Shown: in pieces, positions 7,532 through 58,300 of the stretch
Position numbering within the stretch: position 1 is the first letter of the stretch
How the letters are laid out: every line of letters starts with the position of its first letter
From: Azolla caroliniana
Lineage: Eukaryota; Plantae; Polypodiophyta
Assembly (NCBI GenBank): GCA_043228905.1
Contig: JBHGNT010000018.1
Coordinates: 14,446,001-14,510,000 of the forward strand
DNA length: 64,000 nucleotides
Direction: 5' to 3'
The notes under the pieces: model-generated
What the model saw: only the letters and a program-made list of their open reading frames with translations
Database searches by the model: none
Told to the model about the DNA's origin: nothing
Program-made: the position numbers and the translations under genes

Positions 7532-7540
7532 CAACACAAG

Positions 7541-15550: not shown

Positions 15551-15760
15551 CAATGTTGGCTCGAACTGCTGGTGTCTCCGGATCGGTGTGAGGATCCCAT
15601 AGGAACGGTCTTTGTTCCTCCTCTTTCCATCGACCTTGCCGAGAGGTCCAGTTGCAGTTTGTGGCCGCCTCGCCGGCCCGATACCTCCTTGCCGCTCTGC
15701 CTTCGTCATCTAATCACATTCACCTGCCGCCACCGATCTCTCCTATAGGACTCATGCCGG

Positions 15761-18616: not shown

Positions 18617-18653
18617 TCTCCCTTGCCTCCCTTCACGTCGGGTTCACCAAAGA

Positions 18654-25105: not shown

Positions 25106-25144
25106 GGAAGCACCATTGACCAGGTCATTGACCGGGTCAGAGAA

Positions 25145-28100
25145 ATGGAAAAGTCAAGCTTATGGCTTACACTGGGAGCACTGCAACGGGCGTTACCCAC
25201 AGATGAAGATCTTCGGTTCCGGCAGGCAATTCAATGCACAATCTGCTTGAATGCCGGACACTCGGCAGTGGAGTGCACCATGCGAACCCAATGTGTGATT
25301 TGTCAATCCAAGAGTCATACAACGGACCGGTGCGAGTATAACCTGCTAAACCGACAAGCACCACCCGTCCGACGGATCGAACCAAGAAGCAGCGGAGACG
25401 AAGATGAAGATCGTTGGCAAAGAATGAACCGGTACCGATCGGCACAGGATGTCCGGTACGGAGATAGACAAGAGAATGATGGCCGGTACGGGGATCGGCA
25501 TGATAACTACGACCGGTATGAGCGATCGGACCGTTATCGGGAGTCCAACAGACGACACGAGCAATACGATAGAGATCATTCCCCTGGTTACCGAAGGCAC
25601 CAGGAGGACTACGGCCGATTTTACGATCCACCACGACAGGACTACCGAAATAAAAATAAGAGTAATAAGAAACGTAATTTCAAGAAAGGTGGTCACACTA
25701 GGGACCCGGAACATGGAACCCCAAGGAGCCAACCGACACAGAACGCACCACTCACTACGGGACCGACTCCGGCTACCAGCAATGCTGAATCCAGCAATAC
25801 CCGTAAAGAGTACTGCTACTACTGCAGGCAGGAAGGCCACTACAGTAACCAGTGCCCGGCAAAGAGCTACGATAAACGACCAGCAGTTAATATGGTGGTT
25901 CCGGAAGTGGCGGATGTACAACAAGTAACCACACGGTCGAAAGGCATGGCCAAAGAGTGGGAAACACAAGAGGCCATACGAAAACAGGCAACGGAATGGG
26001 TGAAGGAAGCCAATGAAAGGAACGTCGCGGACACGGAACGGCAAAAGGCGAATACCATAGGGAGTGCCGGCGGTAGCCACGCAGAAAACGAGACATGGCA
26101 AGCACTGCAAGAATGTCAGATCACGTTGCCATTAGGAAGACTCTTGCAGCTCGTGCCGCAATTTACGGAAGGACTAAAAACGGTCATGACAGACGGTATA
26201 GCCCCACCGGCACCAGTCCTCTTCTCGAATCCGGAGGAGGGACCGACGGTGGTGGACACTAGTAGTCCGGTGATTACAGCTATTGTCAAAGGGCACGAAC
26301 TTCCCGGCACAGTAATCGATGGAGGTTCCGGGGTGAACGTAATAAGCCTCCGCACGTGTGATGCCTTGGGTATACATGAATGGGAGCCATGTCCGTTCTG
26401 GCTACGGATGGCGGATACGAGCTCTGTACGGCCGACGGGCTTAATACGGAAATTGGAAGTCACCATAGGAGGTCACACATTTCACATCTCGGCTATAGTG
26501 CTGCAGCTACAGGCGCAAGGAGCGTACCCACTGTTGCTGGGCAGACCATGGTTGAAAACAACACACATCAAGCAAAATTGGCGGAAAAATATGATTACCT
26601 TCCGGCGCGGAAAAGCCAAGGTCCGGGTACCGACACAACCACGGACGAGCAACGGTAAGGAATGCACACCGCTATATGCGGAATGCGTGAACATGCTTGA
26701 AGGGTTGGCAGACGACGAAGAAGCCCAGTACTTGGAGGAACACCCGAAGATCGTACCGCTCTTCGAGATTGACGTAGCTAAAGCCGTAGCGCCATACTTG
26801 CCGCAGCGGGACGAAACCGAAGCCGAACCAGACAAAGATTCGATTCGGGAATTACGGCAAGCACAGGAAGCGTTGGAACGGGAAATGGCCGTTTCCCAAC
26901 GGGTAAAAACATCCCAGCTCGACGAAGTGAACCTAGGAAGCAAGGACGAATCAAAGCCGGTACACATCGCCAAAGAAATGAAGCCGGAAGATAAAGCGGC
27001 GATGATCAAACTTCTCACGGAGTTTCGCGACGTATTCACCTGGTCATACGAAGACATGCGAGGGCTGGACCCTCAATTATATCAGCATCAGATCCACTTA
27101 GGCAAGGACGCGAAACCAGTGGCGCAAAGACGTTACCGAATGAACCCCAACTACGCCGCCAAAGTGAAGGAGGAAATCGACAAACTCCTAAGAGTGGGCT
27201 TCATCCGGCCGGTAAAGAAAGCGACGTGGCTGAGCCCCATCGTCGTCGTCCCAAAGAAGAACGGTAAAATCCGCGTGTGTGTAGATTACAGGAAACTAAA
27301 TGCAGCCACAATTACGGATGCATTCCCTCTTCCGTTCACGGATGGAGTACTGGATGCCGTCGCCGGCCATGAAGTTTATAGCTTTTTAGACGGGTTCAGC
27401 GGATACAATCAAATCCGGATGCACCCTGACGACCAGGAGAAGACAGCGTTCGTCACCGAATGGGGGGTGTTTGTGGCCGTAGTAATGATGTTCGGACTAA
27501 AAACGGCACCAGCAACTTTCCAGCGAATCATCATGGAGATCTTCGGCGAATACATTCCAGCCTTCATGCAGGTTTTCCTGGATGACTTTGCAGTCTATAG
27601 CCGGGAAAAAGACCATTTGCAGCACCTACGGTTATGCCTTGAAAAGTGTAGGTTATACCGGCTAAGCTTAAACCCAGCAAAATGCATCTTTGGGGTTTCA
27701 AGTGGAATATTACTGGGACACATTGTAAGTAAGGAGGGCATTGCGGTCGACCCGGACAAAGTAAACGCGATACTAGGGGCACCGGCGCCGAAAACGGCCA
27801 AAGCACTAAGCCGATTCTTAGGACAGATCCGGTGGCACAGCCGGATGCTCCGTCACTTGGCTGACTTGGCTACACCATTACACACCGCGGTACATCGGAC
27901 ACCGTTCCAATGGACGGATACGGAGGATAAGGCATACAATGCCCTGAAGGTACTTTTGTCACAAGCACCCGTCGTGCAGCCTCCGGATTGGAGCAAGGAA
28001 TTTCATGTGTTCGTTGACGCTTCCGACATCGCTATCGGCAGTGCCTTAATGCAACTTACGGAGCCTAAATGGTACCGGCCGGTATATTACGCCAGCCGGA

Positions 28101-29881
28101 AGCTGTCCCAAGGGGAGAAGAACTATTCGACGACGGAACGGGAGGCCCTGGGCATGATCTACAGTGTAACAAAGTTTCGTCATTACCTATTGGGAAGGAA
28201 GTTCTCCTTTCATGTGGATCACTCGGCGCTCCTGTACTTAGTGTCCAAGGCGTCCCTGACCGGTAAGTTGGCCCGTTGGACCTTGCTGTTGCAGGAGTTC
28301 GAATTCGAGATCTTCCACCGGCCCGGTATCCAGCATGCCGTAGCAAACTACCTGAGCCGGTTAGAATCCGGAGAATCAGGCGACGGAGTATCGGATGAAT
28401 TCCCGGACGCAGAGTTATTCCGTATCACCCCGGAAACGGCAGCGGACGACACGGTGGCATCAGAAGATAGGTGGCTGACAAACATGCACCAGTTCCTAAG
28501 CACGGGCCTGCCACCGGAGGAAATGAACCGGGACGAGAGGAAACGACTGGCGGTGCAGAGCCGCAATTTCTGTCTGTTACGGGGCACTCTCTACCACAAG
28601 GGAGCAGATGGAATATGGAGACGGGCAGTCCGTAGTGACGAGAAACAAGTAATCTTACGGGAAGCACACTGTGGGGTTGCCGGAGGACACTATGCCGGGG
28701 AAGCGACGGCAAGGAAAGTATGGCAGAGAGGCTTATGGTGGCCCACGACGTTAAAAGACGCCGTCAAGTATGCTAAGGAATGTGACCTATGCCAACGAAT
28801 GGGCCAGCCTACGGAGCAAGCACGGATGCCACACCAACCGGTACTTCCACTAGAGCCATTCCAGAAGTGGGGGTTGGATTTTGTCGGACCGTTCAAGCCA
28901 CCGGCAATGAGAACGGGTAATCGTTATGTCATCGTGGCAACAGATTATTGCACTAAATGGGTGGAGGCTAAGGCCTTGAGAGACAACACCGCGTCATCCA
29001 CAGCAAAATTCCTGTACGAAAACATTTGGTGCCGATATGGATGTCCGATTGAATTAATCAGCGACCAAGGAGGGCACTTTCTCGGCCAGGTAGTTGAAAG
29101 CTTAACAACGTTCTATGCCGTGGTCCATAAACGGAGCACACCGTACTACCCACAAGCAAACGGGTTAGCAGAGTCAACCAACAAAACGCTCCAGAACATT
29201 CTCCGCAAAATCGTCAATGAAAACCGGACGGACTGGGATACAAAGCTCCATAGCGCGCTATGGGCGTACCGAACGACATACAAAACAAGTATCCGGACAA
29301 CGCCGTTCCAGTTAGCGTTCGGCTTAGAGGCGGTCATGCCGGTGGAATTTCAGGTACCAAGCTTACGGATCCAACTACGGGAACGGCTGAATGAAAAGGA
29401 GTCGGAGGAAATGCGGCTAGCAGCACTATGCCAACTGGAGGAGCAACGGCTGGCCAGCATCCTACACATGGAACTGGAGCAACGACGACGGAAAGCGTTC
29501 GTTGACCGTCACCGGAAAGGTAATGAAAAGATGTTCGAAATCGGAAAGCCGGTGCTAGTATTCCAAACGAGGATGGGCAAGATGCCGGGTAAACTCCGGT
29601 TTAGATGGACAGGCCCGTATTGGCTGACACGGGAATACAACGGGTCCTATCAGTTAGGGACACTTGCCGGTGAAGTGCTAGGCAAGTGGGTCAACGGATT
29701 TAGACTAAAGCCCTATAAAGGACCGATGCCAAATAACCCGTTTATGCAGCCCATCGGCACTATACCGGGAACGGGACGGATGGAAGAAAAAGACGACGGG
29801 GAACTCGTAGCAGAGGCGAAGGAAGACACGGCAACCCGTAAGGAAAACGGTAAGGGTCCGAAGGGACCTACGGATGTGTAA
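25145..29881 (+). CDS. pol: Gag C-terminus plus Pol of F (zinc knuckles, protease, RT, RNase H, integrase)
   Basis: Motifs CYYCRQEGHYSNQC, VIDGGSGVN, LDGFSGYNQI, FLDDF, FVDASD, GGHY..CDLCQ, WGLDFVGP and ISDQG. Confidence 0.96.
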   Translation: MEKSSLWLTLGALQRALPTDEDLRFRQAIQCTICLNAGHSAVECTMRTQCVICQSKSHTTDRCEYNLLNRQAPPVRRIEPRSSGDEDEDRWQRMNRYRSAQDVRYGDRQENDGRYGDRHDNYDRYERSDRYRESNRRHEQYDRDHSPGYRRHQEDYGRFYDPPRQDYRNKNKSNKKRNFKKGGHTRDPEHGTPRSQPTQNAPLTTGPTPATSNAESSNTRKEYCYYCRQEGHYSNQCPAKSYDKRPAVNMVVPEVADVQQVTTRSKGMAKEWETQEAIRKQATEWVKEANERNVADTERQKANTIGSAGGSHAENETWQALQECQITLPLGRLLQLVPQFTEGLKTVMTDGIAPPAPVLFSNPEEGPTVVDTSSPVITAIVKGHELPGTVIDGGSGVNVISLRTCDALGIHEWEPCPFWLRMADTSSVRPTGLIRKLEVTIGGHTFHISAIVLQLQAQGAYPLLLGRPWLKTTHIKQNWRKNMITFRRGKAKVRVPTQPRTSNGKECTPLYAECVNMLEGLADDEEAQYLEEHPKIVPLFEIDVAKAVAPYLPQRDETEAEPDKDSIRELRQAQEALEREMAVSQRVKTSQLDEVNLGSKDESKPVHIAKEMKPEDKAAMIKLLTEFRDVFTWSYEDMRGLDPQLYQHQIHLGKDAKPVAQRRYRMNPNYAAKVKEEIDKLLRVGFIRPVKKATWLSPIVVVPKKNGKIRVCVDYRKLNAATITDAFPLPFTDGVLDAVAGHEVYSFLDGFSGYNQIRMHPDDQEKTAFVTEWGVFVAVVMMFGLKTAPATFQRIIMEIFGEYIPAFMQVFLDDFAVYSREKDHLQHLRLCLEKCRLYRLSLNPAKCIFGVSSGILLGHIVSKEGIAVDPDKVNAILGAPAPKTAKALSRFLGQIRWHSRMLRHLADLATPLHTAVHRTPFQWTDTEDKAYNALKVLLSQAPVVQPPDWSKEFHVFVDASDIAIGSALMQLTEPKWYRPVYYASRKLSQGEKNYSTTEREALGMIYSVTKFRHYLLGRKFSFHVDHSALLYLVSKASLTGKLARWTLLLQEFEFEIFHRPGIQHAVANYLSRLESGESGDGVSDEFPDAELFRITPETAADDTVASEDRWLTNMHQFLSTGLPPEEMNRDERKRLAVQSRNFCLLRGTLYHKGADGIWRRAVRSDEKQVILREAHCGVAGGHYAGEATARKVWQRGLWWPTTLKDAVKYAKECDLCQRMGQPTEQARMPHQPVLPLEPFQKWGLDFVGPFKPPAMRTGNRYVIVATDYCTKWVEAKALRDNTASSTAKFLYENIWCRYGCPIELISDQGGHFLGQVVESLTTFYAVVHKRSTPYYPQANGLAESTNKTLQNILRKIVNENRTDWDTKLHSALWAYRTTYKTSIRTTPFQLAFGLEAVMPVEFQVPSLRIQLRERLNEKESEEMRLAALCQLEEQRLASILHMELEQRRRKAFVDRHRKGNEKMFEIGKPVLVFQTRMGKMPGKLRFRWTGPYWLTREYNGSYQLGTLAGEVLGKWVNGFRLKPYKGPMPNNPFMQPIGTIPGTGRMEEKDDGELVAEAKEDTATRKENGKGPKGPTDV

Positions 29882-30260
29882 GATCACATAACGTCATTTA
29901 TAAAAAAAAAGAAAAAAAAAAAGAAAAAGAGAAATCATTAAAAATCGAGGTATGAACGGACGTGAAAGGAAGGAGCGAAAAGGTACGTAGTGGGCATTTA
30001 AGAGCCGCCACATCACTTAATACTAAATTGGTACACGACGTGCGCATGCTCGAAAAAGGCGCCAAGACGCACAGAGAAAAAGCTGAACGCATGGAGACCT
30101 TTTCATTTCGCGAGCCAAGAAGCACAGAAGCACCAAGGCGGTTGAAGCTTATCAGACGCGAACCTGCACTCAGAGAACCCCCACGTTCGGAACTCTCTCT
30201 CTCTCGCTCTCACTCTCATCACCACTCTACCTCGCCATCTTTCCTCGACCTCGAAGCAGA

Positions 30261-32929
30261 CATGGACCCACAAACGCTGTCGGAAGCTGCCAGGAAATGG
30301 CTCAGGCAACACGGACTGGATGGGTTCTTGACCATCATGGAGGCACCACCGCACAAAGAAGCCGACCGGGTCATCAAGGAGCTCGACACAGAAGTCATCA
30401 CCGAGGAAGCGATCCGTGCGCTAACAGGCCTTCCGGAGGGAGGTATTTTTCAGATCGATAACCCAACCTCGGAGCAACTCATCCGATATTTCGGTGAGTA
30501 CTCTCTAGCCGGCAAAGGCTATCGAATGCAGGGCGGCGAAGATCCGCTATTTAGGGAGATAGCTCGAGTGCTCCATGAGTACGGCCACGTGTACCCCCGA
30601 CCCCCTGTCATGCCAAAAAATCAGGCAGGGATGATCATAGCCACCTATGAAGGGATCAAGGTGGATTGGCCGGTGTTGATTGCAGACGGTTTGTGCGCGG
30701 CAATCGACACGGTACGAGGAAAGGACGGCAAGGAGGGCCGGAAGCTGTGGCATGCCGTAGCTCAGTGGATAACATTGCTCGCGCCGCCGGTCGAGACCGT
30801 CCAGCCAAAGAAGCGGCCAAGATTATCGGAAGGAAGCACCTCGAAACCCGTGTCCAAACGACAGCAGCTGCTGGCGTCGAAGGCGACGAAAGGGAAGAAA
30901 CGGCTCCCAGAACCGGAGGAGGTGTCACCGGTCCGACCCGTTAAGATAACCATACGGCGACCGGGACAGAAGGAACCGGAACCCTTGACGGCACAGATAC
31001 ATGCCGTTACCCAGGAAGAGGAAACGGAGGAGCCAGTAGAGCACCTCCAACGACGGTCAAGAAGTAGGACCGCCGGGACAGCGGGGGAGCGTTCGGACCC
31101 GCAAAAGGAAGAAACGCCCCCAACTCAACCTGAGCAAACCACAAGGGAGGAACCGGAACCGGTGCGTATAGAACCGGCCTTGTCGACTTCTGTACAAGAA
31201 GTCATTCTAACGGCTCCGGAGACGGCGAGAACCGGAACTCAACAGCCGGCGAGCCCTGCCAGCACACACAGCGGCCAAGGAATAGAACCAGAACGGCAGA
31301 TACAGGCACTCAGGCCAGACAATTCCACAGTGAACGAGCCGACCCGACCAGTACAGCAGCAAGGCACCAGTAGCATGTGGCTACGGTGGGTAGGCGAGCA
31401 GATCGCCGGAGCGGTCGAGTACATAGAGGCGGAGGAGAGAGCGCACCACGAACGGTTGCTCGTCACAACCGTAGATCTAGAGACGGCCTGATCCAGAATC
31501 CGGAGCCTTGAACAAGACTTGGACAGGGTCACAAGGGAAATGGCTCAATTGGCTTTGACAACACAAGTCCAAGCACCGGTGACTCCGGGCAATGTACAGA
31601 ATAAAGCGTCAGATCAACCTGTACATAGCAATCAGACCCCGGCAATGGAAACCGTTCCGGAGAAATGCGGCACAAGCCCAAGAGCTTGCGGACTTAAAGG
31701 ATGAGCTAGCTGCCCAAGAAGCGCTGAGGAGCCGCGAAAGAGAGTTGAAGACGGCAGCGGAGGCAGAACTCAAAAAGACTGCTGAGAATCTACGCTGGGC
31801 CGAGGAGAGCTTACGAAAAGGCCACCAAGCGTACGACCGGCTCAAGGAGGAGAAGGAGAAAATGCTGCAAGAGAAGGACAGGCTCCGGAGAAACGCCGAA
31901 ACAGAAGTAGAGCGCCTGAAAGAGGAACTCCGGCAGCTAAAGGACCGGGAGGACCGGAACCATCGCCAGATCAACGGCAAGCTCAAACAAAAAACGGAGG
32001 AATTTGAGCACTTGCACCGGGAGTATAAACGGTTGCAAACGGAGCACAAGGAATGGACGGATGAGCTCCGGCAAGCAGTTGATCGGACCGCAACGGCATA
32101 CGCTAATGAACAAGCGGAAACCAGAAGACGGTTGGAAGAGGCGGAGAAGGTTCGGACAGAGCTCCTCAGGCAACAATAGGCGGAAAGAGAAAGAGCGGCG
32201 GAGGTACTGCAGAAGCTGCAAACAACATATCAAGGGCAGCTGACACGCTACAGAGAGCAGGCGGAGGATATGGCTAATCTCATCAAGCAGTTGAAGGAGG
32301 AACGACACGTTGTGGAAAGTAGAGCGCAAATGGGAGCAAGTCGCATCCAGGATATCATGTGGGCCTGGTTGAACCAGACCAAGAGCTTGATTGACAACGG
32401 TTCCGTCAAATGGTGGACCAAGTGGGCCCCGAACGCGGCGGAACTCCAATTGCTCCGGGCCGACGTAGAGAACCGGCGGAAGGAGGGAGATGATTGCTAT
32501 ATGCTGACTTCCGAAGACTTCACCGGCATAAGAGATGAGCTGGCCGAAGACTTTCAAGCCTTGGCAGAGGACCAACTAGGGCAAGTCCGGCAACTTGTAG
32601 CTCAGCTGGACGACGACAGGCTGGAGGCGCAGATCCAGTTTGAAAGCTACGAGAGGTCCCGGATCCGGGAAGAGAAAGCACGAGAACCAGTAACGGTCAA
32701 CCTCAGTGATGAGGAACCGTTACTGGAAGGAGACCGGACCGAAAGCAGTCAAACGGGGATGCCGGAGTCAGAGAAACAAACGGAGCAGCCGCCTATAGAG
32801 CAGCCGGAGCAGTCTCAGTCCCAACCACAACCACAGCAGCAGCAGCAAGCACAACCGCAACAACCACAACCGGAAGAACAATTGGAAACTCTGGAACAAA
32901 GTATTTTGGACAATTTGGGTGAACAATGA
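30261..32929 (+). pseudogene. Extra ORF3 of F: globular N-terminal domain, low-complexity linker and long coiled coil; disrupted
   Basis: Track ORFs 29962-31491, 31519-31704, 31592-32179 and 32270-32929 join through two in-frame stops and one frameshift; likely start MDPQTLSE near 30261. Confidence 0.7.
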
Positions 32930-33897
32930 AGGGGCCGAGAAGGGTTCGACGTACAAGGTACTGTCCCACGGGCGTGCCATGTGTTACCGGCCGGCAAGGA
33001 GTCCAAAATACGGAGTGAAGGAATTAATTAAGTATGGTTGTAAATAAGCATAGTATGGACGGACGGACTGGAAACGGTATGCCGTTCCAGATCCGGACGG
33101 ATCCCGAATAGGTGCGATAGGCACCGTTTTGTACTACGGGCCGGAAACCTATTTAAAGGCCCGAACCCCATTGTAATCGCAGCGGATAATTAATAGAGCG
33201 TATGGTGTTTATACTTCTGTGTTGATTTCCGTTCTGTACTTACTGTTATATCTTACGCGTGTAATTAACAAAAGCGCTCTAATCGTGTAACCTACTTAGG
33301 TCGGTGTAATCGTTGAGTCATAATCCTATGCCGTAATCACCCTTTGGTGAAGTGTCTCCGTGACACCTTGTGTTAGGCCTTGTCCGGTCAGAGAACAACA
33401 TGTTGTATAGTAGATAGGTAGGCACAAAGGTCAAATCTTGGGTAGCAATATTCTATAGGGGAAATCGAGGAGTATCTCTGTCCGAAAGGACAGAGAATTA
33501 ATGTGATGTAAACGGGTGAAACGGCCTCCCTCCTTGAGCTATAAAAGAGAGGGAGACGAGGGGGAGAGAGGGAACGAAGTGCTGTCGGACTGGGACCGAG
33601 CTCTTCTTCTCTGTCGTTCTCCATAGCTTTCTTTTGCGCAAGCTCTCAAGAGGCTGATTCTGCTCTATGGAACGCCCGTGTGCTTCCGACAGAATCTCCA
33701 TCTTGCTCTCTTGTGTGCGTGGGTGATCAGGCGTCAGCATCCACCTCGCCAACCTAGTCGGCTGTAACCATTCGAGTCGTCTGCATACATACAAATACAT
33801 GCCTATATTTACATACACACTCTAGTGTTCTCAACTCGCGTCTCCTGTGTTGTTGTGACGCGTCCCCGTGCGCTTCTTTGTCTATACGTGAGTGAGC

Positions 33898-33934
<37 letters not shown>

Positions 33935-34050
33935 CCTCACCTATTCCTCGGTCCAAGACCCCAGTGGTTCCGCCTTGTTCTCCACGCACGCGCGTAACAA
34001 TGCGACATATTTGGTGAACCCGACGTGAACAGGCGGTAGAGGAGTAGAAG

Positions 34051-36181
34051 ATGAGGGCGTCGGACCTTGCAGAAGCCATGGCTTCGGCTGTAGACCTTAT
34101 AGTGAGTGCGCGTGAAGGCACCGGCGCCCTTGATAGGGCTATCGAGGCGGTTGTCGGTACGATCGGCCGGTTTAGTGGAAAGGATGCCACGAGCTACTTG
34201 GCGTCCTACCGGGCTGAGATGGTAATGAGGGACATTCCGGAAGAGAGGCGTCTAGCCGGATTCCCTCGAGTGGCGATGCCGGGCATCCATACGGAGGTAC
34301 TCGAGGTACGGGCCGAGAGCCGAACCTGGGAGGAGTTCAAAGGTCGGCTCCTCGAAAAATACGGGCTTGAAGATGCGCTTCGACTTTCGAAGCGGGACTT
34401 TATGGAGTGGGTGGAGACCCCCGACAAAGGAAGGAACGCGTCAGTGCTCCTCCGGGAGTTTGAGGAACGCTTCGGGCGCCTCTCGGTGCTTGACCGGACC
34501 GTTCTGGACACAAGCCGTGTCCTATTGTTTGTTAAGTCAGTTGACGAGCGGGATCGGGAGCAGGTAGGCCTCCTATTGGAGACTGATGACGGGCTGACGA
34601 GTGGGATCGGGAGCAGGTGGTAAAGAGGGTCTGTGGCCGTTTCGACAAACGGCGGGAATGGGTTGACAAAGGATCGATAGGGGCAGGCTCTGTCGCAGCA
34701 AGGAAGCTCGAGCCAACACCACCAGCGCGAAGGGAAGAGACCCGAGATTGGCTCGAGACCGGATCGGCTTCGACCGGCATGGTCAAGGGCTCGTTCGGGG
34801 GAGCAGCTCTGGAGGAGCTGACGCAGAGGGTAAGGGATCTCCAGATCGCCCAGGCACGGAGGGATGGTGGCGAACAGGCCCGTGACCGACGACCTCTGGC
34901 TGAAAACAAGTGCATGTGGTGTGACGTGGTTGGGCACATCTGGAAAGACTGCGGGGACTTCGCCGAGGCGATGAGAAGCAACGTGGTGTACCTGTGGAAC
35001 GGTCGGGTGCACGCCAGAGAGACCCGAAGGGCCCTGAACCTGAACGTCGGGCAAGGGGGTATGAAAAAGTTGATGGAGGAGGCGGCGGCTCGTCACGCGG
35101 AGACTGTCCACAACTCGGCGTCAGCTGGTATTCGGGTCGGAGGTGGCGAGGCCCCGAAGACGAACAAAGCCGGGTTCTGGCCGACGATGCTAGAAGGCCT
35201 CGCCGGCGCACGACTAAGGAAAGAAGAGGCGGACCGCATAGAAAAACGGGTCAGGGAGGTAACCGGGTGGAGTGACCCGGTGGAAGAAAAGACGGGCTTC
35301 GTCGAAGCCGCTTGTCAAAACTACGAGGCTCTGGTGGAGGACAAGCGGGTAGGGAAAACCGGAGGGGTCGAGCCCTCGCAACGATATGAAACTCGGTTCA
35401 GGCAAAGGCGGAATGAGGCCGGTGTACCCGGTGCCCAGGATAATCCCAAGAGGGCGGGTACCGGCTGGGCACGGAAATCGAAAGATCCACGGACCTGTGA
35501 AAGGTCTTGGAAGAACGAATCCTCGACAGTAAGGTGGAACTGTCGGTGAGGGAAGTGCTTGGGATCGCCAAGAAGGAGTTCCACGACTCCATCGTAGACT
35601 TGGTGAAGAGGAAGAGGCTGTCGACGGAGACAGAACCGGAGAAGCCGGTGGAGGTGCGGACGACGCACATAGAGGACATGGCGCTGGAAGACGAGTTGGC
35701 GGAGAGCCACTATTCGAGGCCGCACTGGGCCAGAGCGACCACGAAGACCCCCGTGAAAATCGGAGATGTTAATGAACCGGTGGTGGCGTTGGTGGACCAC
35801 GGTTCAGAAATCAGCTTGATGTCCATGGACTTCTATAAGAAGGGGAAATGGCCGATCAACACCAAGCACGGGTGGAAAATACGGGCAACGACGTGTGCCA
35901 CCGAAGAACTGCATGGAGCCTGCCCGAATGTACGAGTAAAGATCGGCGATGTCGAGATTGACCAGCACTTCTTCGTGCAGGAGACGTCCTCACATCCGGT
36001 TATACTAGGAGAACCGTACATCACGACAACATGGATGGAGACCAAGGTGCTGGCCAACGGCTCGGCCTATGCAAGGGTCAAGAGCCAGGATGGGTGTCAC
36101 TCGGTCCAGTTCCTGACGGTGAGACCGAACCATGAGCTGAACCGCGAGACCCTCGGGAGCGAAAGCCGAGAGGATTTTTAG
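34051..36181 (+). pseudogene. gag: gag-protease of G, frameshift-damaged
   Basis: CMWCDVVGHIWKDC knuckle and DHGSE protease motif; colinear with the gag-PR of H. Confidence 0.85.
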
Positions 36182-36240
36182 AGAGGGCTATCAAGGCGTG
36201 GGGCTGCGATAGTCCGGACACTCCGGGAAAACCCCACAAG
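36172..36240 (+). promoter_or_regulatory. Predicted -1 ribosomal frameshift signal of G
   Basis: G_GAT_TTT_TAG, then stem GGGCTATC/GATAGTCC with loop GTGGGG complementary to downstream CCCCAC; the -1 frame is open into pol. Confidence 0.75.
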
Positions 36241-37162
36241 TGTACGATAGCGAAGAAGACCTGTACTATAAGTAGGAAATTTTGGTTCTCCGACAACGGA
36301 GGGTGTACGATAGTCGACGTTGTTGGATGGAAGAAGAAAAGGGCGGAGGAGCGACTTCGGGCATGTGGTATCCTCGGCCTCGGAGAGGAAATCAGCGAAG
36401 CCGTGGAGGCGATCTCTTTCGACGATACCTTGGGGGAGCTGCGAGAGGTAGTCGGAGGAGTCCTTAAAGAGGACCGGACGATTCCGGTATGTTCGGAAAG
36501 GATGTACGAAGTCATCGCCGACTTCAGTAGAGGGCTCGAGTCGGATCGGACGGCCCGGGTGGACACGAGGTACAAGACTGTGGACCGGAAGGTGAGGCCA
36601 GTCGCGGCTCCCTTGCCGGAGGGCAGCGAGTTGCGAATAAAGGGGGTTGCGTCAGACCCGAGTTTATGAAATCCGGCCCGCATAGGACACACGTTCACCG
36701 ACATAACGCTGCGCGAGCTCAAAATCGGTGGGGGCGGCTTCCTACTGCTGGCGGAAGAGGACCGTTTTCGGGGAATGCTCGGAAGGCATGGGAAGGCTTT
36801 CGCATTCTCATCGGAGGAGATCGGGTGCGTAGACCCGACAGTCGTGGAACCGATGGTGATATTCACGATACCGCATGTGCCGTGGAGTCTCAAGCCGATT
36901 CCAGTACCCAGAGCTCACATCCCGAAGCTGATGGAGCTGTTAAAGCAGAAGGTCGAGATGGGAATCCTCGAACCGTCGAGTGCCCCATACTCGAATCGGT
37001 GGTTTACCGTGCCGAAGAAGGACGGCACGCTGCGCTTTATTCAAGACCTGCAGCCGTCCAACAAGGTGACCATTCGAAACGGAGGAATCGGACCAACAAT
37101 AGACGAGTTCGCGGAGGCCTTCGCCGGAAGGTCGATTTACTCGGTCGGTGATCTCTACTCGG
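36181..37162 (+). pseudogene. pol: pol (RT N-terminal part) of G, truncated
   Basis: YKTVDRKVRPVA..KPIPVPRAH..FIQDLQP matches the pol of H. Confidence 0.88.
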
Positions 37163-47964: not shown

Positions 47965-49070
47965 TAGGCACAAAGAAACGTTATATTGCTCAATAGCAAC
48001 AGTTACAAATGACAACTAACCACCAACTAAAGGTTACAAAGTCACTTTATATAGTGACTATCCTAGGGCAACTGCCCTTTATGCTATTTACAAAAATAGC
48101 CCAACCTTGGGCTGTCCAAAGGGACAGTATGAATACGGCCATTATACACTCATATTCGACACTCCCCCGTAATGGGCGTATACATGGGTTATCTGAAATT
48201 ACAGGTATATACAACTAGGTTTATCGGACAGATCGGTTTTGTTCGAGTTGGCAAGATATGAAGACAGAAGACCGAACCGGTCGGGTTAGAAGAGCTAAAG
48301 CCGATTCTCAAAGAACCGATGTCAGTTGTCTGATACCATCCTATGCTGTGTGTCCGACTTTTTAACCAGACCGATTTTTCGTTACGCCCATCTGGTGTCA
48401 AAGGGACCGGAAGCGATCCGCCGAAAGACACTTGGTCATTCCATCTGAGACATTATCGGTTGTGGATATCTTCTCGAGACCGAGTTTCCCTGAAATGACG
48501 CAGCCCGAACAAAGTGATATCGAATGTCGATATGCTTAGAGGCATTGTGGTGAACCGGATTTTTTGACAAAGCAACAACACCCTGGTTGTCGTTGTAGAC
48601 AACTGGAGCCGAGTCGAGGTCGACTTGTTGAACGTGTGCGCCAGCCGACCAAGCCATAAAGCTTCTTTTGCCGCTGTCGTGAAGATCCGTCACTACGCGC
48701 GGATCGTGAGGTGGAACCGCCGGGGTTCTAGACCAGAAGGATTTAGAGTCGATACAAGCTTTGGCGAGAAAGTACTTAAGATAGATTGGGAAAGAGAGAA
48801 GTTGAGATTACACGATTGATTTGAAAACGAATTTCTTCCTCTTAATTTTCATAAAAAAAAACCGTCTTTTTCTCCTCCCCCTTCCCTCTTTTATAGATGC
48901 TCTCATGCATATGATGCATGTGAGGGTACAAGACATGCATAAATTGCATGTTTGCAATTTGGCGCTTAAGTATTACATGTGGTGCATGCTAACCATGTCA
49001 CTCATTTTAGCTCTCATGGATGAGAATTTACATGTAAAAGTACAATGATAGAAATATAATTTCAACTAAA

Positions 49071-49139
49071 TACCATGGCTTAATGGTAAGCCAATTGACT
49101 CCTAACTTGGAGGTGCAAGGTTCGAATTCGTACTTGCCC
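49071..49139 (+). promoter_or_regulatory. tRNA-like Pol III A/B-box module in the H LTR (second copy 55843-55911)
   Basis: TGGCTTAATGGTAAG..CTCCTAA..GTGCAAGGTTCGAAT(T/C)C; the B box is a perfect GGTTCGAATCC at 55891-55901. Confidence 0.65.
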
Positions 49140-49730
49140 TCCTTGTATATATATTTATATATTTATTTTATCTAGTCGCCGGACACCGTCGCCGAATACC
49201 GGTGCCTCGCCGGATGCCGCCGCCGGATACCGGATACCGGTGCCGCATGCTGCCGCCGGATCACCGGCTCCATCTCCGGTCCGGTTTTGGTTGGCCAAAA
49301 CTCTTTTCGAGTAGCTAGCCACCTCCACTCTTAGTTCAAGTTACCTTGAACTCTCTATGCTCCACACATAGACACAAAGATAATATCTTTTGCTCCACCT
49401 TATATATGTTGAGAGCTGTATTTGTCGTGCCTATGTGGGATATCTCACAATTTTCTCCTTTCCTTTTATAAACTTTATACCCTCATATCTTGACATTTAG
49501 TTGTCCGTTTCTCGTGTAATAAAGTGCATTCGAAACCTCCATCATTTTGTACTTAGATATTAAAAATGTTATCTTCACAATTATTGTATTACGTGATTCA
49601 TACTCGATTTCGTACGTTTTATGGGATTTTCACACTATTGCCGAAAATCTTCACGACATCCACCCCCACCAAACCGCACGTCCTCCGGTACGTGCCAAGA
49701 AGAGAAGAAGTGAGATTTCGGCTACGATGA

Positions 49731-52700
49731 TCAATTAGATTCCTCCATGTCTTCATTTTTATCCGGCCTATTATGTTCATCGTCGACGTATTCGAGGTCA
49801 GGATCCTTGTCTTGTCTTTTCTTGAAAAGCTTTACTCTTTTTCCCGCAATGGGTACGGCCAACCTTGATCCGTCTAGTTCCGCAAGGTGGTATGTGGCAT
49901 TATCGTTGGCACTTGTCACCACATACGGCCCGAACCATCTTCTTGCGAACTTCCTTGTTGTACTATGTTGATTGTCAAGGGTGCTGTCGTAAACCAAAAC
50001 CCAATCCCCTTCTTCAATCTTCTTGGGACGAAGTCGATGCGTGTTGTCGAACCGAACTTTGTTCTTTACTCGGGCTGCCTTCATCATCTTTCGCGCTTTT
50101 TCTAAATCTTCAGGTCTTCTTTCAAGTTGCCTTATCCGCGCCGCTAATAACTCTTCTCGGCTCATCTCGTTCTCCCACGGTATCGCTACCCATGAGGCGA
50201 TCGTCCTTTCGATGGGCATAATCGGCTTTTGTCCATACATAAGCTCCGTCGGCATATACCCTGTCACCGAGCTATGTGTCATTCTATCGGCCCACAAGGC
50301 ATAGGGTAATAGTCGTGGCCAATTCCCGACTCGACCGTTGCATGCCCGTACGATGGCTTTAACGATAGGTCCATGCCCTCGCTCGATCTTCCCATTTGCT
50401 TCCGGATTGTAGGCAGTCGTGAGGGAGAGCTTCACGCCTAGTCTTTCGAAGAGCTCCGTCGCTTCGTGCACGTCCAACTCCCCTCGGTCGGCCACTATCT
50501 TCCCTACACATCCATATCGGCAAACAACATCTTCAAGTAAAAATTTACAAACGGCTGAAGTCGTCTTATTTGTCAAGGCTCGTCCTTCCACTTGATTTGT
50601 CAAGTCTTCCCTTGCGAGCGCTAAGTACTTCATTTGTCCCACTCCCATTGGCATCGAGACCAGATCCACCATCCATTTGAAGTGAATGGTGAGTGGGTAT
50701 GTCGGCTTTAACTCATCACGATGACGTATATTTGAATATATTTGGCAAGTTTCACATGTGGACACGAAATGGAGTACATCTTTGTACATGCTTGGCCACC
50801 AGTACTTCTCCTTCAATTTTTCAAACGTCGCCCATGTTCCTCTATGACCTGCCCAAGCACTCTCGTGGAATTCGGTCATCAGCGTCTCTTGCTCTTCTTT
50901 CTTTACCACCACTCGACGTGGTATTCCTATCCTTCTTTTTGGATGTCGCCAAAGGAATCCTCCCTTCAAGAAGTATCGGTAAGCTTTCTTTCGGATTCGT
51001 AGGGCCTCCTCCTTTGTTAACGAAGCATCTGTCGTCAATGTTCTTAGGAATCTACCGATGAGTAACCACTCTCCTTCGTACTCGTTCTCGTTGAAGGTGT
51101 GGAGGGTTTGCGTGTCCTGGTCTTCCGCCGACAATCGAGCCATCTTGAAGAAGTCGAGGGCGACATCTTCATCTTCCGAAACCATGTTACTTTCATTTGA
51201 AAATCTTGCCCTCGACAGCATGTCAGCCATGGCGTTCTTCTTCCCTGCGATGTGACGGATCTCTGGGTTTAAAGATTTGATGTAGGCGATCCACCTTAGC
51301 ATAGCAAGATCTGGGGTCGCACATCCCGAGACCATTCCGAGAATTGGGAGACAATCTGTCTCTATTATCACTTCTGACCCGATCAGGTAATCTTTGTCCG
51401 TCTTCACTACCGACACAATACCCCAAAGTTCCCGCTTGACTTGGGCATATCTTTGTTGCCGTTCGCTGAGAACCTTTGCTCCGAACCGGACGGCATATCG
51501 CGCATTATCTTCACCTTCTTGATTGATGACCCACCCAATTCCGGTTGGGCTCGTATCTACGGTCACATAAATTGGTTTCCCTTCGGCATAGTCGGCCTTC
51601 CTTAGTGCCGGAGCTTCAAGAAGCAGTTTCTTTAATCTTCGCATCGCCTCTGTGTGCTCATCTCGCCATTCGAACTTTATTCTTTTCTTTAGTAGTCCAT
51701 ATAACGGTTCGGCGACATGAGCGTAGTGAGGAATCCATATATGATAAAACACGCACGCTCCAAGGAACCTTCGAACCTCCGTTTGGTTTTCGCATTCTTC
51801 TTTCATGTCTTGGATTGCGTTCACTTTGGATGGCGAGGGCTTCCGGCCGTATGCTCCACACAAGTGACCTACCACCAAGATCTCCGGTTGCCCGAATGCG
51901 GATTTTTCTCCCGAAAATGTCAAATTTGCATCTTCGAGCCTTTGAAGCACCTTCTTGCAATCTTTCATATGATCCGCAACGAACTTTCTACAACCTTCCT
52001 TATCTTTCGATTCATCTTTCTCCTCATCCGAACATCCTTTTATCGGAATATCATCCAATAATGGCATCGTGATGTCCGGAATGCAATCCTTCAAGACTTT
52101 ATTCATGGCATTCACCATATGAGCCACCGAGTTCGCTGCACCTTGGGGTAAGGTACACATCCGCACAAGCCCGATCGGAGTCCTCATGGTTGTAATGTCC
52201 CGACTGTCGATCACCAATTGGAATTGGTCATATCCGGAATAGAGATCGCCAATGGAGTAGATGGACCGGCCCGCAAACGCTTCGGCAAATTCGTCCACGC
52301 TCGGACCGATTCCGGCATTTCGAATTGTTACATTGTTGACGGGTTGAAGATCTTGGATGAATCGCAATGATCCATTCTTCTTTGGCACCGTGAACCACCT
52401 ATTGGAATAAGGAGCATTCGACGGTTCTAGAATTCCCATACTCACCTTCTCCTTTAAGAGCTCGATCAGCTTTGGAAGGTGTGCTCTCGGAACCGGTATC
52501 GGTTTCAAATTCTAAGGCACATGAGGCACCGTGAAGATCACCATTGGCTCTATAACCTTTGGGTCGGCGCATCCGATTTCTCGTGGGAAGAATGCGAAAG
52601 CCTTCCCATGTCTCTCAAGCATATCGCGAAACATTCGCTCCTCTTCAGGGAGAAGGAAATCCTCCTTTCCAACTCGTAGCTTCCCCTTCGTCTCTTTGGT

Positions 52701-53216
52701 GAAGTCATGACCTATCTTCTTCGGATCTCTTAAGCTTGGATCATTAGCGACTTCCTTCATCTTTTGCCAGCTATCTTCCGGTAGCGGAACCGCAACTGGC
52801 TTGATCTTCTTATCCACCGTTTTATATTTCGTGTTGATGTCAGCTTCCTTCATCGAGATGCCACGATGGTATTCATCGATGATAGCGTGCATGTTGATGG
52901 AGTTAACCGAAATCACGCATTGGTTGTGAAGATAGCTCAAGTCCACGACGTCCTCGATTTCGCCGATGGTGTCGTTAAATGAGGCTTCTTCCATAATATG
53001 AGTCACGAACTCTCCTTCTTCTATTATGTTCTCTTCTTTTAGCATCTTCTCGAATTCTTGTATCCGGCGCTTGTGCTTCTTGTCGGGTAGTACTAGTTTA
53101 CATGCGCCACTAGGTGCGACACATGTTGCTTCTCCTTGCAATCCACGCACTCTTCTTTCTTGTGGGGTCTTCTGATTGCTCGGACTATTTGTGCCCCATG
53201 CTTCAATAGTCCGCTC
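49731..53216 (-). pseudogene. pol: pol of H (RT, RNase H, integrase) with one in-frame stop near 52512
   Basis: Motifs DLYSGYDQF, LLDDI, VDTSP, AGHRG..CETCQ, MVDLV and VADRG; ORFs 52512-53150 and 49731-52508 are in frame across a TAG that corresponds to Trp in G. Confidence 0.93.
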
Positions 53217-53225
53217 TAAAAATCC
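53160..53225 (-). promoter_or_regulatory. Predicted -1 ribosomal frameshift signal of H
   Basis: G_GAT_TTT_TAG, 5-nt spacer, perfect stem CGGACTATT/AATAGTCCG, loop TGGGG complementary to downstream CCCCA; the -1 frame is open into pol. Confidence 0.78.
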
Positions 53226-55385
53226 GAGGATTCGCCTCCGAGACTATCTCGATTCCTTTCATGATTGGCTCGCACCGTTAGGAATTGGACCGATCTTTGG
53301 TTGTCAAGACTCTTTATTCGTGCGAAGGCTGCTCCATTATCGAACACTCTGGTCTCCATCCGAGATGATGTGATATAAGGTTGCCCTAGGATGACAGGAT
53401 GCGACGCCGATTCTTGTACGAAGAAGTGTTGATCCATCTCCACATCCCCGATCGTGACTTTGACATTGGGACAAGCTCCGTACAAGTCCTCCGTAGACTT
53501 TGTTGCCGCGCGAATCTTCCATCCGTGGTTTGTATTGATTGGCCATCTTCCCTTTTTGTAGAAGTCGGTGGACATGAGGTTGATCTCCGAGCCGTGGTCG
53601 ATCAAGGCTACGACGGTCTCTTTCTTCTCCCCGATCTTCACCGGCGTCTCTGTTGTCGCTCGTGCCCAATGAGGTCGAGTGTAGTGGCTGTCCACCATAT
53701 CTTCATCGATTTCGTCTCTTGCCATCGTTATGGCATTCGTTTTTGCTTTTTGCGGCTTCTCTTCTTCCTCGTCCGATTGTTGTCTCTTTCTCTTTACAAG
53801 GTCCACGATCGTGTCATGGAACTCCTTCTTCGTAATGCCAAGCAATTCCCTCAAGGACAAAGTTACGTGGCTATCAAGAACTCGTTCTTCGAGAATCTTC
53901 TTTAGGTCCGTCGTCTGCTCTATGTCCGACCTTAGCTTATAGGTAGGTATAGTCCTTGTCCTCCGAGTGGGGTCTTCGACACCAACCTTCACGGGCCGAA
54001 CCGTTTCTTCAACTCGTATGCTTGGCTCCCCTTTTCGGCTTGATTCTCGTTCCTCCGTTTGTAAAGGTCGACTCGTCTCCGTATCGTCCTTCTTTTTCGC
54101 GTTCCTTGTTTCATGTCTTTTTGATGGGCCTTGCTCTTCTATTCTCTTTCTCTTTTCTTCGACGAACACCTCGTGGTTGTCGCACATCACCTCTGCGAGT
54201 ATGGTGTTGTCGTCCACCGGATCCGACCACCCGGTTATGCTTTGCACGTTTCGGTCCGCAAGCTCTACCTCGTTCGATGTGACTTTTCCCTTCTTCTCAT
54301 ATTCGAGAACGGAAGTCCAAAACTTTGCTCCCGCTCTAGCAGCTTCAGTCTTGTCTTTCCCGACTCTTATTCCGACCGACGCAGCATAGTGCATCGCATC
54401 CACATGAGTCGCATCGGCATCCTCCATAGATTTCTTCATTCCTCCTCTTCCGAAATTCACCCGTAGGCTCTATGTATACGATATTCTGTCGAATCGCCTC
54501 TCGAAGGCTCGCACAATCCCTTCTCATGTGGTCCATACTATCGCACCACACGCATCTAAAGGGTTCTTTTCCTTTAGGGCCCCGACGATTCATGTTGGCT
54601 AGCGTGACCTTCTCGAACTTCTTCGCTAGCTCTTCGATGATGTCGTCATCAATCTTCTTTCCTTCCACGTTACTTTGTCTCAGCGGCTCAGCTACTTTCG
54701 GCGGTCTTGCTTTCTCCGTGGTACTCGGTCCCGTCAAGTCGGTGTCATCAACCCATTGGCGACGCTTGTCGAGCCTATTGCATGCCCGCTTCACCGCGAT
54801 CCAGTCCGCTACGAGCCCATTTGCTTGGGTATCACCTTCGAGAAGAGTCCCCAACTCCCGTCTATCCTTTATGTCCACGGCCTTCAAGAAGTACAAAGTC
54901 TTGTCCTCTTCAAGCAACACTTGGTCCGTATTGGGGAGACGACTAAACATCTGGTCGAATTCGTCGTACACCCTCGAGACGCTCATCTTCTTATTCTTCT
55001 TCTCTATCCACTTCATCAGGGCATGTCGAGTCATCCTCGTTGAGTCTTCAGTCACGAACTCCGCTAGTATCGTTTTCTCGAACTCGAACCATGTTGTCTT
55101 TCCTTCTTGAAGCTCGATGACGCGTCTTTGGATGTTGTTGGCGACAACTCTCTTGAAGCTTGCGATTTGACGTGCCTTGGACACGTCCCTTTGATTCATC
55201 TCCCTCTTATATGCATCAAGGAACTTCGTAACGTTCCTTCCATCGAATTGGCCCTCGAGCTCTACGACACGATCGACAGCCTTCTCCACGCTCGTGTCGT
55301 TGTCCCGAGATCTCATCATTTGCTCGACGATTAGCATCATCCTTTCGAGCTCTCCTGCTTGGTTGCTTAAGGACGCCATCTCCAA
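53216..55385 (-). pseudogene. gag: gag-protease of H, with a small frameshifting deletion near 54465
   Basis: CVWCDSMDHMRRDC knuckle; ALIDHGSEIN protease motif; ends in SDF*. Confidence 0.9.
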
Positions 55386-58300
55386 GTATTAATCTCGACT
55401 TGATCCTTCCTACCGCCTCTTTCACGTCGGGTTCACCACTTAATTATGTCGTGAAGATCTGTCACTACGCGCGGATCGTGAGGCGGAACCGCCGGGGTTC
55501 TGGACCAGAAGGATTTAGAGTCGATACAAGCTTTGGCGAGAAAGTACTTAAGATAGATTGGGAAAGAGAGAAGTTGAGATTACACGATTGATTTGAAAAC
55601 GAATTTCTTCCTCTTAATTTTCATAAAAAAAAACCGTCTTTTTCTCCTCCCCCTTCCCTCTTTTATAGATGCTCTCATGCATATGATGCATGTGAGGGTA
55701 CAAGACATGCATAAATTGCATGTTTGCAATTTGGCGCTTAAGTATTACATGTGGTGCATGCTAACAATGTCACTCATTTTAGCTCTCATGGATGAGAATT
55801 TACATGTAAAAGTACAATGATAGAAATATAATTTCAACTAAATACCATGGCTTAATGGTAAGCCAATTGACTCCTAACTTGGAGGTGCAAGGTTCGAATC
55901 CATACTTGCCCTCCTTGTATATGTAAATATGTATATATATTTATATATTTATTTTATCTAGTCGTCGGACGCCGGTTCGCCGGATGCCGACGCCGGATAC
56001 TGGTGCCGCCGCCGGATACCGATGCCGGATACCGGATACCGGTGCTGCATGCCGCCGGATCACCGGCTCCATTGTCGGTCTGGTTTTGGTTGGCCAAAAC
56101 CCTTTTCGAGTAGCTAGCCACCTCCACTCTTAGTTCAAGTTACCTTGAACTCTCTATGCTCCACACATAGACACAAAGATAATATCTTTTGCTCCACCTT
56201 ATATATGTTGAGAGCTGTATTTGTCGTGCCTATGTGGGATATCTCACAATTTTCTCCTTTCCTTTTATAAACTTTATACCCTCATATCTTGACATTTAGT
56301 TGTCCGTTTCTCGTGTAATAAAGTGCATTCGAAACCTCCATCATTTTGCATTTAGATATTAAAAATGTTATCTTCACAATTATTGTATTACGTGATTCAT
56401 ACTCGATTTCGTACGTTTTATGGGATTTTCACACTATTGCCGAAAATCTTCACGACACCGCGTCGGACGCAGCTACATATTCCGCATCGGTCGTTGAGGT
56501 GGTTGTGCACTCCTGAAGTTTCGACTTCCACGAGATTGCTCCATTGCCGAATTTGAAACAATATCCGGTTGTTGATTTCCGTCTGTCCACGCAGCCGACG
56601 AAGTCCGAGTCGGTGTAATCGACTACGCCTGAGGTTGAGTTCGGGCCAAAAAGAATGTCGTGGTCTTTTGTGCTAGCTAGATATCTGAACACATGCTTGA
56701 TTGTGTTCCAATGTGATCGGCCTGGGTTGTGCATGAATCTGCTGACGACTCCTACGGCGTGAGCAATATTATGTCATGTCGCGACCATCGCGTACATAAG
56801 GGAGCCGACTGCCGGTGCATACAGTACCGACTTCATATCTTCCCCCTCCGGACCGGATGTCAGGTAGTCTCGTTGAGACAGTCGAAGGTTAATGGGGAGC
56901 GGGGTCGAAGCAGACTTGGCTGAGTGCATGTTGAAGCGTTCCAAGACACGTCCAATGTAGTCAGTTTGAGAGAAGAAGATTTGTTGTTTATCACGATGCC
57001 GACTAATCTTCATACCAAGTATGTGTCTTGCCGGACCGAGGTCCTTCATGGCAAACTTCAACCGCAGTTTCCGAACAAGTTCGGTGAGCTCTCCGGCATG
57101 TCGGCCGGAGAGTAGCATGTCGTCCACGTAAATGATGAGGAAGACGGGAGACCCATCTTGAGCTATTTTGGTGAAGAGACAGTGGTCCTCATTGCTCTTG
57201 GAGAAGCCGACCGACTGGATGAAGTCGTCGAACTTCTTGTACCACTGTCGGGGTGCCTATTTTAGGCCATATAAACTCTTCCTGAATTGGCAGACTAGAT
57301 GTTCCTAGCCAGATGCCACAAAGCCTTTCGGCTGCTCCATATAGATTTCCTCCTGTAGGTCACTATGGATGAATGTCGTTTTTACATCTAGCTAAATCAA
57401 CTCCAAGTTTTCGGTGGCCACAACGCCCAGTATGAAATGAAGGGTTGTCATTTTCACCACTGGTGAAAAGATTTCGTTGAAGTCAATGCCATATTCTTGT
57501 CGAAATGCCTTCGCAACTAATCTAGCCTTGTACTTTGGGTTGGTCGAGTCGAACGTCTCTCTTAGTCGATAGACCCACTTACACGGAAGAGCATGTCGAT
57601 TCTTCAGTAATTCGACCAAGTCCCAAGTCTTGTTTGCGTGAATTGACTGCATTTCAGACTCCATCGCCAGATGCCAGGTGGTTGAGTCGGCAAATGTCGA
57701 TGCTTCTTCGTAAGACATCAGTTCGCCGGCATCGGTAAAGAAAATTCCGAGAGAGTACCTTTCCGGAGGTTGCGACAATCTCTCGGATCTTCGAGGTATG
57801 ACTGGACTGGTTGCATTGGGTATATGTGTCGGATGGTCGGAAGCCGAGCCACTTGGCTGTGCTGAATCGGTTGATTCAGTGCGGGAGGTGTCGGTTACCC
57901 ATGAAACCAATCTCGTGTTGTGGGTTGGGCCTTCATGAAGGGTTGGCACTTCGGAGAATATTATGCTTCGGACTTCAATAGGCCTTTCGGTTGTTTTATG
58001 CATAGCCGACTCGTTGAACACGACATCCGAACTTCAGACGATTTGTATGTGCTCAGGGTCCCAGAGTCGATATCCGATCTCGCCGTCGGGTCCATATCCA
58101 AGGAAAATGCATTTCCTTGATCTTGGTTCGAATTTCCGGCGGTAGTCTTTCGGTATGAGAGCATACGCCTTGCAGCCGAAGATCCTCAGCTTGTCATAAT
58201 TCGGCTTACTGTCGGTCCATGTTTCCTGAGGTATTTTAAGTCCTAGAGGTCTACTTGGCAACATATTGATTATGTGTACTGTCGTAAGTAGAGCCTCAGC

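Follow-up and report, generated by a model that had tools for sequence, protein, structure and literature searches.

The window, by which we mean the whole stretch of 64,000 nucleotides of Azolla caroliniana DNA that was analysed (contig JBHGNT010000018.1), holds two decayed copies, G and H, of a Phygy-like clade of Ty3/gypsy retrotransposons, matched to the Phygy lineage of REXdb via its described features. Their main parts are the following:

34012..34028, plus strand: primer-binding site (PBS) of G, a motif common to H and 39 of 80 loci from outside the window
34048..36181, plus strand: gag-protease region of G, in three pieces through copy-specific indels, with the Asp protease motif DHGS
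36136..37160, plus strand: start of the G pol in the -1 frame, with one premature stop, its 3' end abutting a Copia piece
48675..56457, minus strand: whole element H, 7783 bp, with LTRs at 55447-56457 and 48675-49658 and TSD GCGG
55438, minus strand: PBS of H, 8 nt behind the LTR end
53216..55388, minus strand: gag-protease of H, two ORFs with a copy-specific deletion near 54470, with DUF4100 and Asp_protease_2
49731..53243, minus strand: pol of H (linker, RT, RNase H, integrase) in the -1 frame, with one premature stop

The domain order is PR-RT-RH-INT, and a Pfam scan of the H pol matched no chromodomain or extra domain. The PBS motif is common to four elements of the window and to the same 39 of 80 outside loci, and it may be a match to tRNA-Trp. 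The length of H falls inside the size range of Phygy, and its 4-bp TSD, found on both flanks of this one element, fits the Phygy motif. REXdb gives Phygy a 4-bp NCGN TSD, a PBS mostly for tRNA-Trp, a length of 7656-9968 bp and an ORF organisation marked 'ND' (PMC6317226). The elements studied here share with it the TSD type, the size range, one conserved PBS motif and homologs in Physcomitrium, with no extra domain found; they differ in that their layout is resolved as Gag-PR overlapping RT-RH-IN, and in having relatives also in a liverwort and a fern.

Several bases separate the PBS from the LTR end (8 nt in H, 55447-55438; 4 nt in G, 34007-34012; variable among loci), and the protease motif is D-H-G-S throughout the clade instead of D-T/S-G, its H residue being nearly invariant (35501-36181 and 53216-54469 in the window). 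Two further elements carry the same PBS motif. That at 5399-19575 (PBS at 18649, minus strand) has a gag match only (18574-18005), and that at 6803-10147 (PBS at 7514, plus strand) holds an unrelated acidic ORF of 606 codons (7520-9340); no PR or pol match was obtained in either, and both are likely non-autonomous passengers of the Phygy-like clade. A different and young gypsy element (LTR identity 99.8%) lies at 23537-33400. Its gag-PR-RT-IN occupies a single frame, interrupted by one stop at 25103-25105, and long extra ORFs follow pol (29956-32929).

Over the PR region, G and H are 68% identical at the nucleotide level, and most of their damage is private: gag indels near 34605-34615 and 35452 in G and near 54470 in H, and premature stops in the pol ORF at 36669 (G) and 52512 (H), both before the RT core. 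The similarity of G to its relatives stops at 37160, next to the Copia piece. The sole break at a position common to both copies is the PR/RT junction, which has this composition:

36172..36178, plus strand: G slippery heptamer G_GAU_UUU (GGATTTT), identical in 67 of 76 sites
36179..36181, plus strand: stop TAG of the G Gag-PR, directly 3' of the heptamer
36185-36192 with 36208-36215, plus strand: predicted stem 1 (S1) of G
36198-36203 with 36232-36237, plus strand: predicted pseudoknot stem 2 (S2) of G, GTGGGG/CCCCAC
53225-53219 and 53218-53216, minus strand: H heptamer G_GAU_UUU and its TAG
53163..53213, minus strand: predicted pseudoknot of H, with S1 at 53213-53205/53189-53181 and S2 as TGGGG 53198-53194 / CCCCA 53167-53163

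The first-pass annotation of this DNA, made from its letters, had reported that both Gag-PR ORFs end in G_GAT_TTT_TAG, and each letter and position was found to be correct. The same holds for a stem beginning 5-6 nt past the heptamer (the spacer is 6 nt in G and 5 nt in H), for the -1 frame peptides FLERAIKAWG (G) and FLERTIEAWG (H), for a compensatory C-G to U-A swap between the two stems, and for a TGGGG loop with a downstream CCCCA in both elements, whose letters fall at the S2 positions listed above. Its description of the -1 frame as open straight into pol applies to the first 133 codons, up to a conserved YKT motif, but not further, as the premature stop of each copy comes before the RT core. 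Each element has the segment GGATTTTTAG once, and the window has no other copy of it.

The PR/RT junction in related elements

The outside loci are the best 80 of 158 confirmed loci (from 201 pattern matches) and were selected on protease peptides, not on the heptamer motif; together with G and H they form a set of 82 sequences. Since most loci stem from one series of related assemblies, families (29 at 88% nucleotide identity, with a median identity of 67%) and not loci are the counting unit. A heptamer stands at the end of the PR frame in 76 of the 82 sequences, eight of the sites having been located by motif search on account of a broken frame or a lost anchor. GGATTTT accounts for 67 of them, GGATTTC for five, and GGGTTTT and GGTTTTT for two each. 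Of the six sequences without it, L015 is a point mutant, L030 meets a contig end, and the other four diverge past PR. At a fixed place, GGATTT[TC] would be expected by base composition with p ~1e-4, and it is observed at 72 of the 76 located sites. Within 15 disjoint pairs of sequences, the heptamer columns differ at 1 of 105 positions, compared with rates of 0.28-0.43 in loops and flank. A stop codon follows the heptamer directly in 68 sites (TAG 30, TAA 27, TGA 11).

The Gag-PR ORF overlaps the pol ORF, which is in a different frame. The longest frame of at least 100 codons open from the site is the -1 frame in 62 of the 76 sites, the -2/+1 frame in two and the 0 frame in none, this length not being reached in 12. 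From the site to the YKT motif, no stop interrupts the pol frame in 47 of 48 cases, with 3-26 stops in the other frames. On the 5' side, the open part of the pol frame contains no in-frame AUG in any of 46 loci of the -1 type. Both ORFs are intact in 25 loci from 15 families, of which 24 have pol in the -1 frame and one in the -2/+1 frame. None has PR and RT in one frame, the arrangement that the first-pass annotation had named as counting against its proposal. In contigs of the H family from four runs, no indel reaches a share of 10% or more.

Predicted proteins extend this picture. Among 92 metagenome-called Gag-PR relatives, none continues for over 70 further aa. The end is [DGN]F in 61; another 26 belong to a class that ends 5-6 residues later (one of them, P0032, really has a VF end), two end in VF and three otherwise. 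The same ends are found in gene models of Riccia, Physcomitrium and Adiantum, which are the named homologs of G and H (liverwort, moss and fern), the Physcomitrium patens proteins matching the PR region at ~50-65%. DF, GF or NF ends persist at 28-47% PR identity (P0253, P0266, P0271, P0214, P0219). Annotated gene models run on in 34 of 65 cases, with joins at varying places, and 15 of 49 unlabelled representatives do so, most of them resembling the run-on gene models. A distant relative called from an ENA contig, P0225 (PR identity 48%), has PR-RT-RH-IN in one frame, including the integrase zinc domain, and the signal is therefore not universal in the wider group. A hunt for other long in-frame fusions gave one further Riccia gene model only, which is weak evidence. 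No relative was found among viral contigs with PR or RT queries.

In some sub-groups (L054, L066, L077, L079, L080) the 0-frame stop comes six codons past the heptamer, inside stem 1, which is longer there (9-13 bp); two of them have G_GGU_UUU. Proteins that end in DF or GF plus 5-6 aa, as in these late-stop sub-groups, are known from Adiantum and Physcomitrium. In PEMV-2 any stop after the site works and a sense codon does not, according to a review passage (PMC5009743). We think that the late-stop sub-groups offer a natural test of whether the heptamer-adjacent stop matters. For P0005:480-728, the look-alikes in the ESM Atlas from Basidiomycota and Mucoromycota are short protease-only proteins, and fungal relatives may also end their ORF after PR.

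Predicted stems and constraint on the RNA

Covariation was counted on a structure-blind MAFFT alignment of 30 sequences. Stem 1 is paired in 91% of cells, with double changes in 7 of 9 pairs, and stem 2 in 70.5%, with double changes in 6 of 7. Taken together, 82% of 480 cells pair, against 74% in shuffled and 36-44% in slid alignments, and 13 of 16 pairs show double changes; the covariation score was reached by none of 500 shuffles, which ignore relatedness. Stem 1 is also what RNAalifold predicts, and 6 of its 8 pairs there have double changes. When each strand is paired with its own or a foreign partner, the z value is 5.6 for S1 and 6.1 for S2, two non-partner controls being null. In the 15 disjoint pairs, S1 pairing is kept at 23 of 28 changed positions, against 5-8 of 26-42 when the strands are slid, and S2 pairing at only 8 of 14 (or 9 of 16). 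S1 double changes by themselves show no excess in these pairs (6 vs 3.7, P 0.10), and a swap test between nearest relatives gave a null result for each stem (S1 11 wins to 9 losses, S2 12 to 8). An alignment-free search finds knot-like pairing in 27 families, and in 23 of them its score is higher than at any of 40 control positions within the element; in a 28th, decayed family (L069) it finds none. The spacer from heptamer to stem is 4-7 nt in the 27 families scored (4 nt in three). An Rfam search had nothing matching the cassettes of L058, L001 and L027; its 14 weak miRNA matches sit in a repeat of L001.

We consider the predicted stem 1 to be strongly supported by this covariation. The predicted stem 2 is less firm, resting on compensations across deep clades and on conservation of its 5' strand, and being weak between close relatives; this is also how the junction alignment with covariation test that the first-pass annotation had suggested turned out, favourably for S1 and, in deep clades only, for S2. 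It is possible, yet in our opinion rather improbable, that frameshifting is driven by the S1 stem-loop alone, with the GGGG/CCCC match having no function as a second stem. In addition to the weak S2 covariation between close relatives, the register of S2 shifts by 2-3 nt between families, and RNAalifold displays only S1, which is the only stem reportable by that program. Against this, distant families have changed both S2 strands and yet keep 5-8 bp at the same place: GAGGG/CCCUC in L058 and L061, GCGAGA/UCUCGC in L073, GCAGGGA/UCCUUGC in L064, CAAGG/CCUUG in L054 and GGCGGGG/UCCCGCC in L066. Moreover, the S2 cross-pairing value quoted above speaks for a real partner, and the 5' strand of S2 changes at a rate of 0.08, compared with 0.28-0.32 in the flanking loop bases. 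As for geometry, the gap between the stems is 4 nt in G and H, which exceeds that of a classic H-type knot, and ViennaRNA, by which knots are not foldable, places the CCC of G in another hairpin.

The coding side was compared in eight pairs of sequences. In all eight, pS is 0.15-0.47 in the cassette and 0.57-0.80 in pol, and pN is below pS over codons 25-100. Low synonymous divergence in the cassette, together with amino acids that vary freely, is the signature of constraint at the RNA level.

Frameshifting as the probable reading of the junction

We think that programmed -1 frameshifting between PR and RT, with a predicted H-type pseudoknot, is very probably the right reading of the junction in Phygy-like elements, judging from comparative sequence evidence. 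A canonical -1 signal is described as a heptamer, a spacer of 5-9 nt and a 3' structure (PMC7618472), and the Phygy-like loci fit it with heptamer, spacer, covarying stem and constrained -1 ORF; G_GA is listed as an accepted exception to the X_XXY_YYZ heptamer (PMC5009743). In this proposal, the Gag-PR frame would be read up to the conserved G_GAU_UUU and its stop, with RT-RNase H-integrase kept in the -1 frame, and the predicted pseudoknot 5-7 nt downstream would stall the ribosome at the heptamer. Most ribosomes would then stop and release Gag-PR, and a minority would slip, tRNA-Asp and tRNA-Phe re-pairing on GGA and UUU, to yield Gag-PR-RT-RH-IN. The share of slippage would set the ratio of structural to enzymatic products. 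The earlier suggestion that this lineage makes Gag-PR by default and RT-RH-IN through recoding is thereby supported as the best reading.

Access to pol by splicing, with TTTTTAG as acceptor or the cassette inside an intron, is very unlikely. Ogre does have an intron between Gag-PR and RT (PMC6317226), G and H do read TTTTTAG, and gene models of Physcomitrium and Riccia join PR to pol over the junction region. The first AG past the heptamer, however, is at offsets of 0-5, and 4 of 26 families have none within 12 nt; there is thus no common acceptor frame. The candidate donor at a Val codon is not conserved, the -1 frame is open from the heptamer onward with the constraint over codons 25-100 given above, and the gene models join at differing places, which we read as ab initio introns. 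The frameshift is likely part of the reason for these varying joins in Physcomitrium, Riccia and Adiantum.

We give equally little credit to a separately made pol, started at a downstream AUG through reinitiation or on a subgenomic RNA, with the structure serving packaging or dimerisation. In loci where the pol frame is open through the site, a stop 10-121 nt before that of Gag-PR bounds it on the 5' side, and Met codons exist downstream, both of which would suit such a start. But the first Met falls anywhere from codon 3 to codon 111, with no fixed place, and it would be left unexplained why a near-invariant heptamer keeps a fixed distance of 5-7 nt to the stem. Mutational decay, by which two dead copies share a frameshift by chance, can be practically dismissed: G and H are both broken elsewhere, but those breaks are private to each copy and none of the 25 intact relatives is in frame. 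Transcriptional slippage was rejected, the run being 5 T, and 3 T in the GGATTTC families.

Several known systems resemble this one in part. In Ogre and Retand (Tat lineage), Gag-PR also forms one ORF and RT-RH-INT a second (PMC6317226). Between the two ORFs there is a spacer or intron in Ogre and a single stop in Retand, both lineages having aRH, whereas the G/H clade has an overlap in another frame (same source). The first-pass annotation had remarked that retroelement shifts usually fall between gag and PR; this needs tempering, the Gag-PR/RT boundary itself being not unusual in plants, as Ogre and Retand indicate (PMC6317226). Tcn1 and Selgy likewise have overlapping frames in gypsy elements of seedless plants, but between Gag and PR, and an overlap of Gag-PR with RT is listed for no lineage in the organisation entries of REXdb (PMC6317226).

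Among viruses, the pro-pol -1 shift of MMTV and HTLV also gives access to RT after the protease, stimulated by a 3' structure; it differs in that two shifts are needed, in its heptamers, and in serving infectious viruses of animal hosts (PMC5009743). The umbraviruses and dianthoviruses (PEMV-2) share the heptamer G_GAU_UUU, plant ribosomes and a nearby 0-frame stop of free type, but their stimulator is a long-distance pairing, whereas the knot predicted in the G/H clade is local, at ~55 nt (PMC5009743). The parallel drawn earlier with these viruses is correct for the heptamer and fails for a local H-type knot; because their stimulators are long-range pairings, only the heptamer is common. The gag-pro/pol of alpharetroviruses provides another comparison. 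There, the protease lies inside Gag, which a review passage words otherwise, and a -1 shift after the protease likewise opens RT, with other heptamers, animal hosts and infectious particles.

The Gag-PR/RT split and retroviral pro-pol -1 shifts were known before; new here are the proposed frameshift in Phygy-like elements and the AG_GUU_UUU sister families described below. In the literature we found no description of a PR/RT frameshift signal in such elements; subscription journals, Repbase entries and bioRxiv supplements might mention the two-ORF layout. Plant LTR retrotransposons are characterised as mostly single-ORF and free of recoding (PMC5580714), and the plant layouts of a 2003 survey, as summarised in PMC5009743, were all of the +1 type. 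To these would be added a -1 signal of the classical kind in a plant clade of high copy number, in mosses and other seedless plants, with some 29 natural variants of one frameshift knot for structure-function work on plant ribosomes. The junction likely explains part of the 'not determined' organisation of Phygy, and annotators should not count the PR/RT break as decay.

Two sister families with pol in the -2/+1 frame

The families L058 and L061 are sisters with a support of 100 in both the pol and the PR trees; in the former, the row for the H pol (wrong frame) and L054 (frame-broken) were ignored and only the L058 and L061 pairing was used. Their cassettes are:

L058, 2835-2900, and L061, 2497-2565: AG_GUU_UUU cassette with the same predicted knot, pol lying in the -2/+1 frame

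In both, the A of GG(A)TTTTT is missing, which gives AG_GUU_UUU, with the stop one codon later. S1 is kept, S2 is compensated (GAGGG/CCCUC), and the conserved stem begins after a spacer of 5 nt instead of 6. The pol is open for at least 1101 codons in the -2/+1 frame, and the -1 frame soon hits a stop. Between the two families pol is 81% identical, with a dS of ~1.2 and a pol dN/dS of 0.08 (0.07-0.13 outside the cassette). The L058 gag has one internal stop, and five cluster members have the full Gag-PR of 724 aa with the same end. The L058 family is covered in four of four runs (three studies), the junction having no listed indel, and one contig, at a depth of 705, spans that junction without gaps.

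We lean slightly towards -2 slippage as the way in which these two families would reach pol. The site equals the PRRSV -2 motif AG_GUU_UUU (PMC7618472), and -2 slippage is reported to be optimal at spacers 1-2 nt shorter than those for -1 (PMC3458567), the 1-nt shorter spacer being in the direction that favours -2. A different entry into pol, through a +1 slip on UUU_U/G or through reinitiation at an AUG shortly before the stop, is a serious possibility that falls a little short of probable. On -2 slippage, re-pairing of the P-site tRNA-Val on AGG would be poor; +1 shifts, too, can be stimulated by a 3' pseudoknot, as in antizyme (PMC5009743); and each family has a pol-frame AUG upstream of the site. 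The two AUGs, however, are at non-homologous codons, and such an upstream AUG is also present in 9 of 27 canonical families.

The arterivirus nsp2TF -2/-1 site has the same 8 nt, AG_GUU_UUU (PMC7618472, the account of the PRRSV site). According to that account, the PRRSV site has no RNA structure and needs nsp1beta/PCBP on CCCANCUCC, whereas in L058/L061 a pseudoknot is predicted and the product is the essential polymerase. Unstructured 3' RNA with the protein-binding motif CCCANCUCC ~10 nt downstream was not found in L058/L061, stem 1 of the predicted knot being there instead. The junction may work like the arterivirus -2 system but is not that system.

The wider picture, in which a pseudoknot-driven PR/RT frameshift runs through the clade and one lineage switched from -1 to -2 by loss of a single base, staying active under purifying selection at dS >1, we hold to be evenly balanced. 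If true, L058 and L061 would present a natural -2 frameshift that depends on RNA structure only and is essential for the polymerase, and their switch would be a natural test of the spacer-tension model. Spacer-driven conversion between -1 and -2 was found reported only in engineered reporters (PMC3458567), and the two families make it testable whether a spacer shorter by 1 nt turns -1 into -2 in nature.

Two proteins first grouped with the VF families, P0034 (ending in WVFP) and the Riccia protein P0152 (ending in RVFPDSLL), are separated from them by the PR tree. P0034 and the Riccia proteins P0152, P0170 and P0175 stand in clades apart from L058/L061 and, judged from their protein ends, may possess independent G_GUU_UUU sites.
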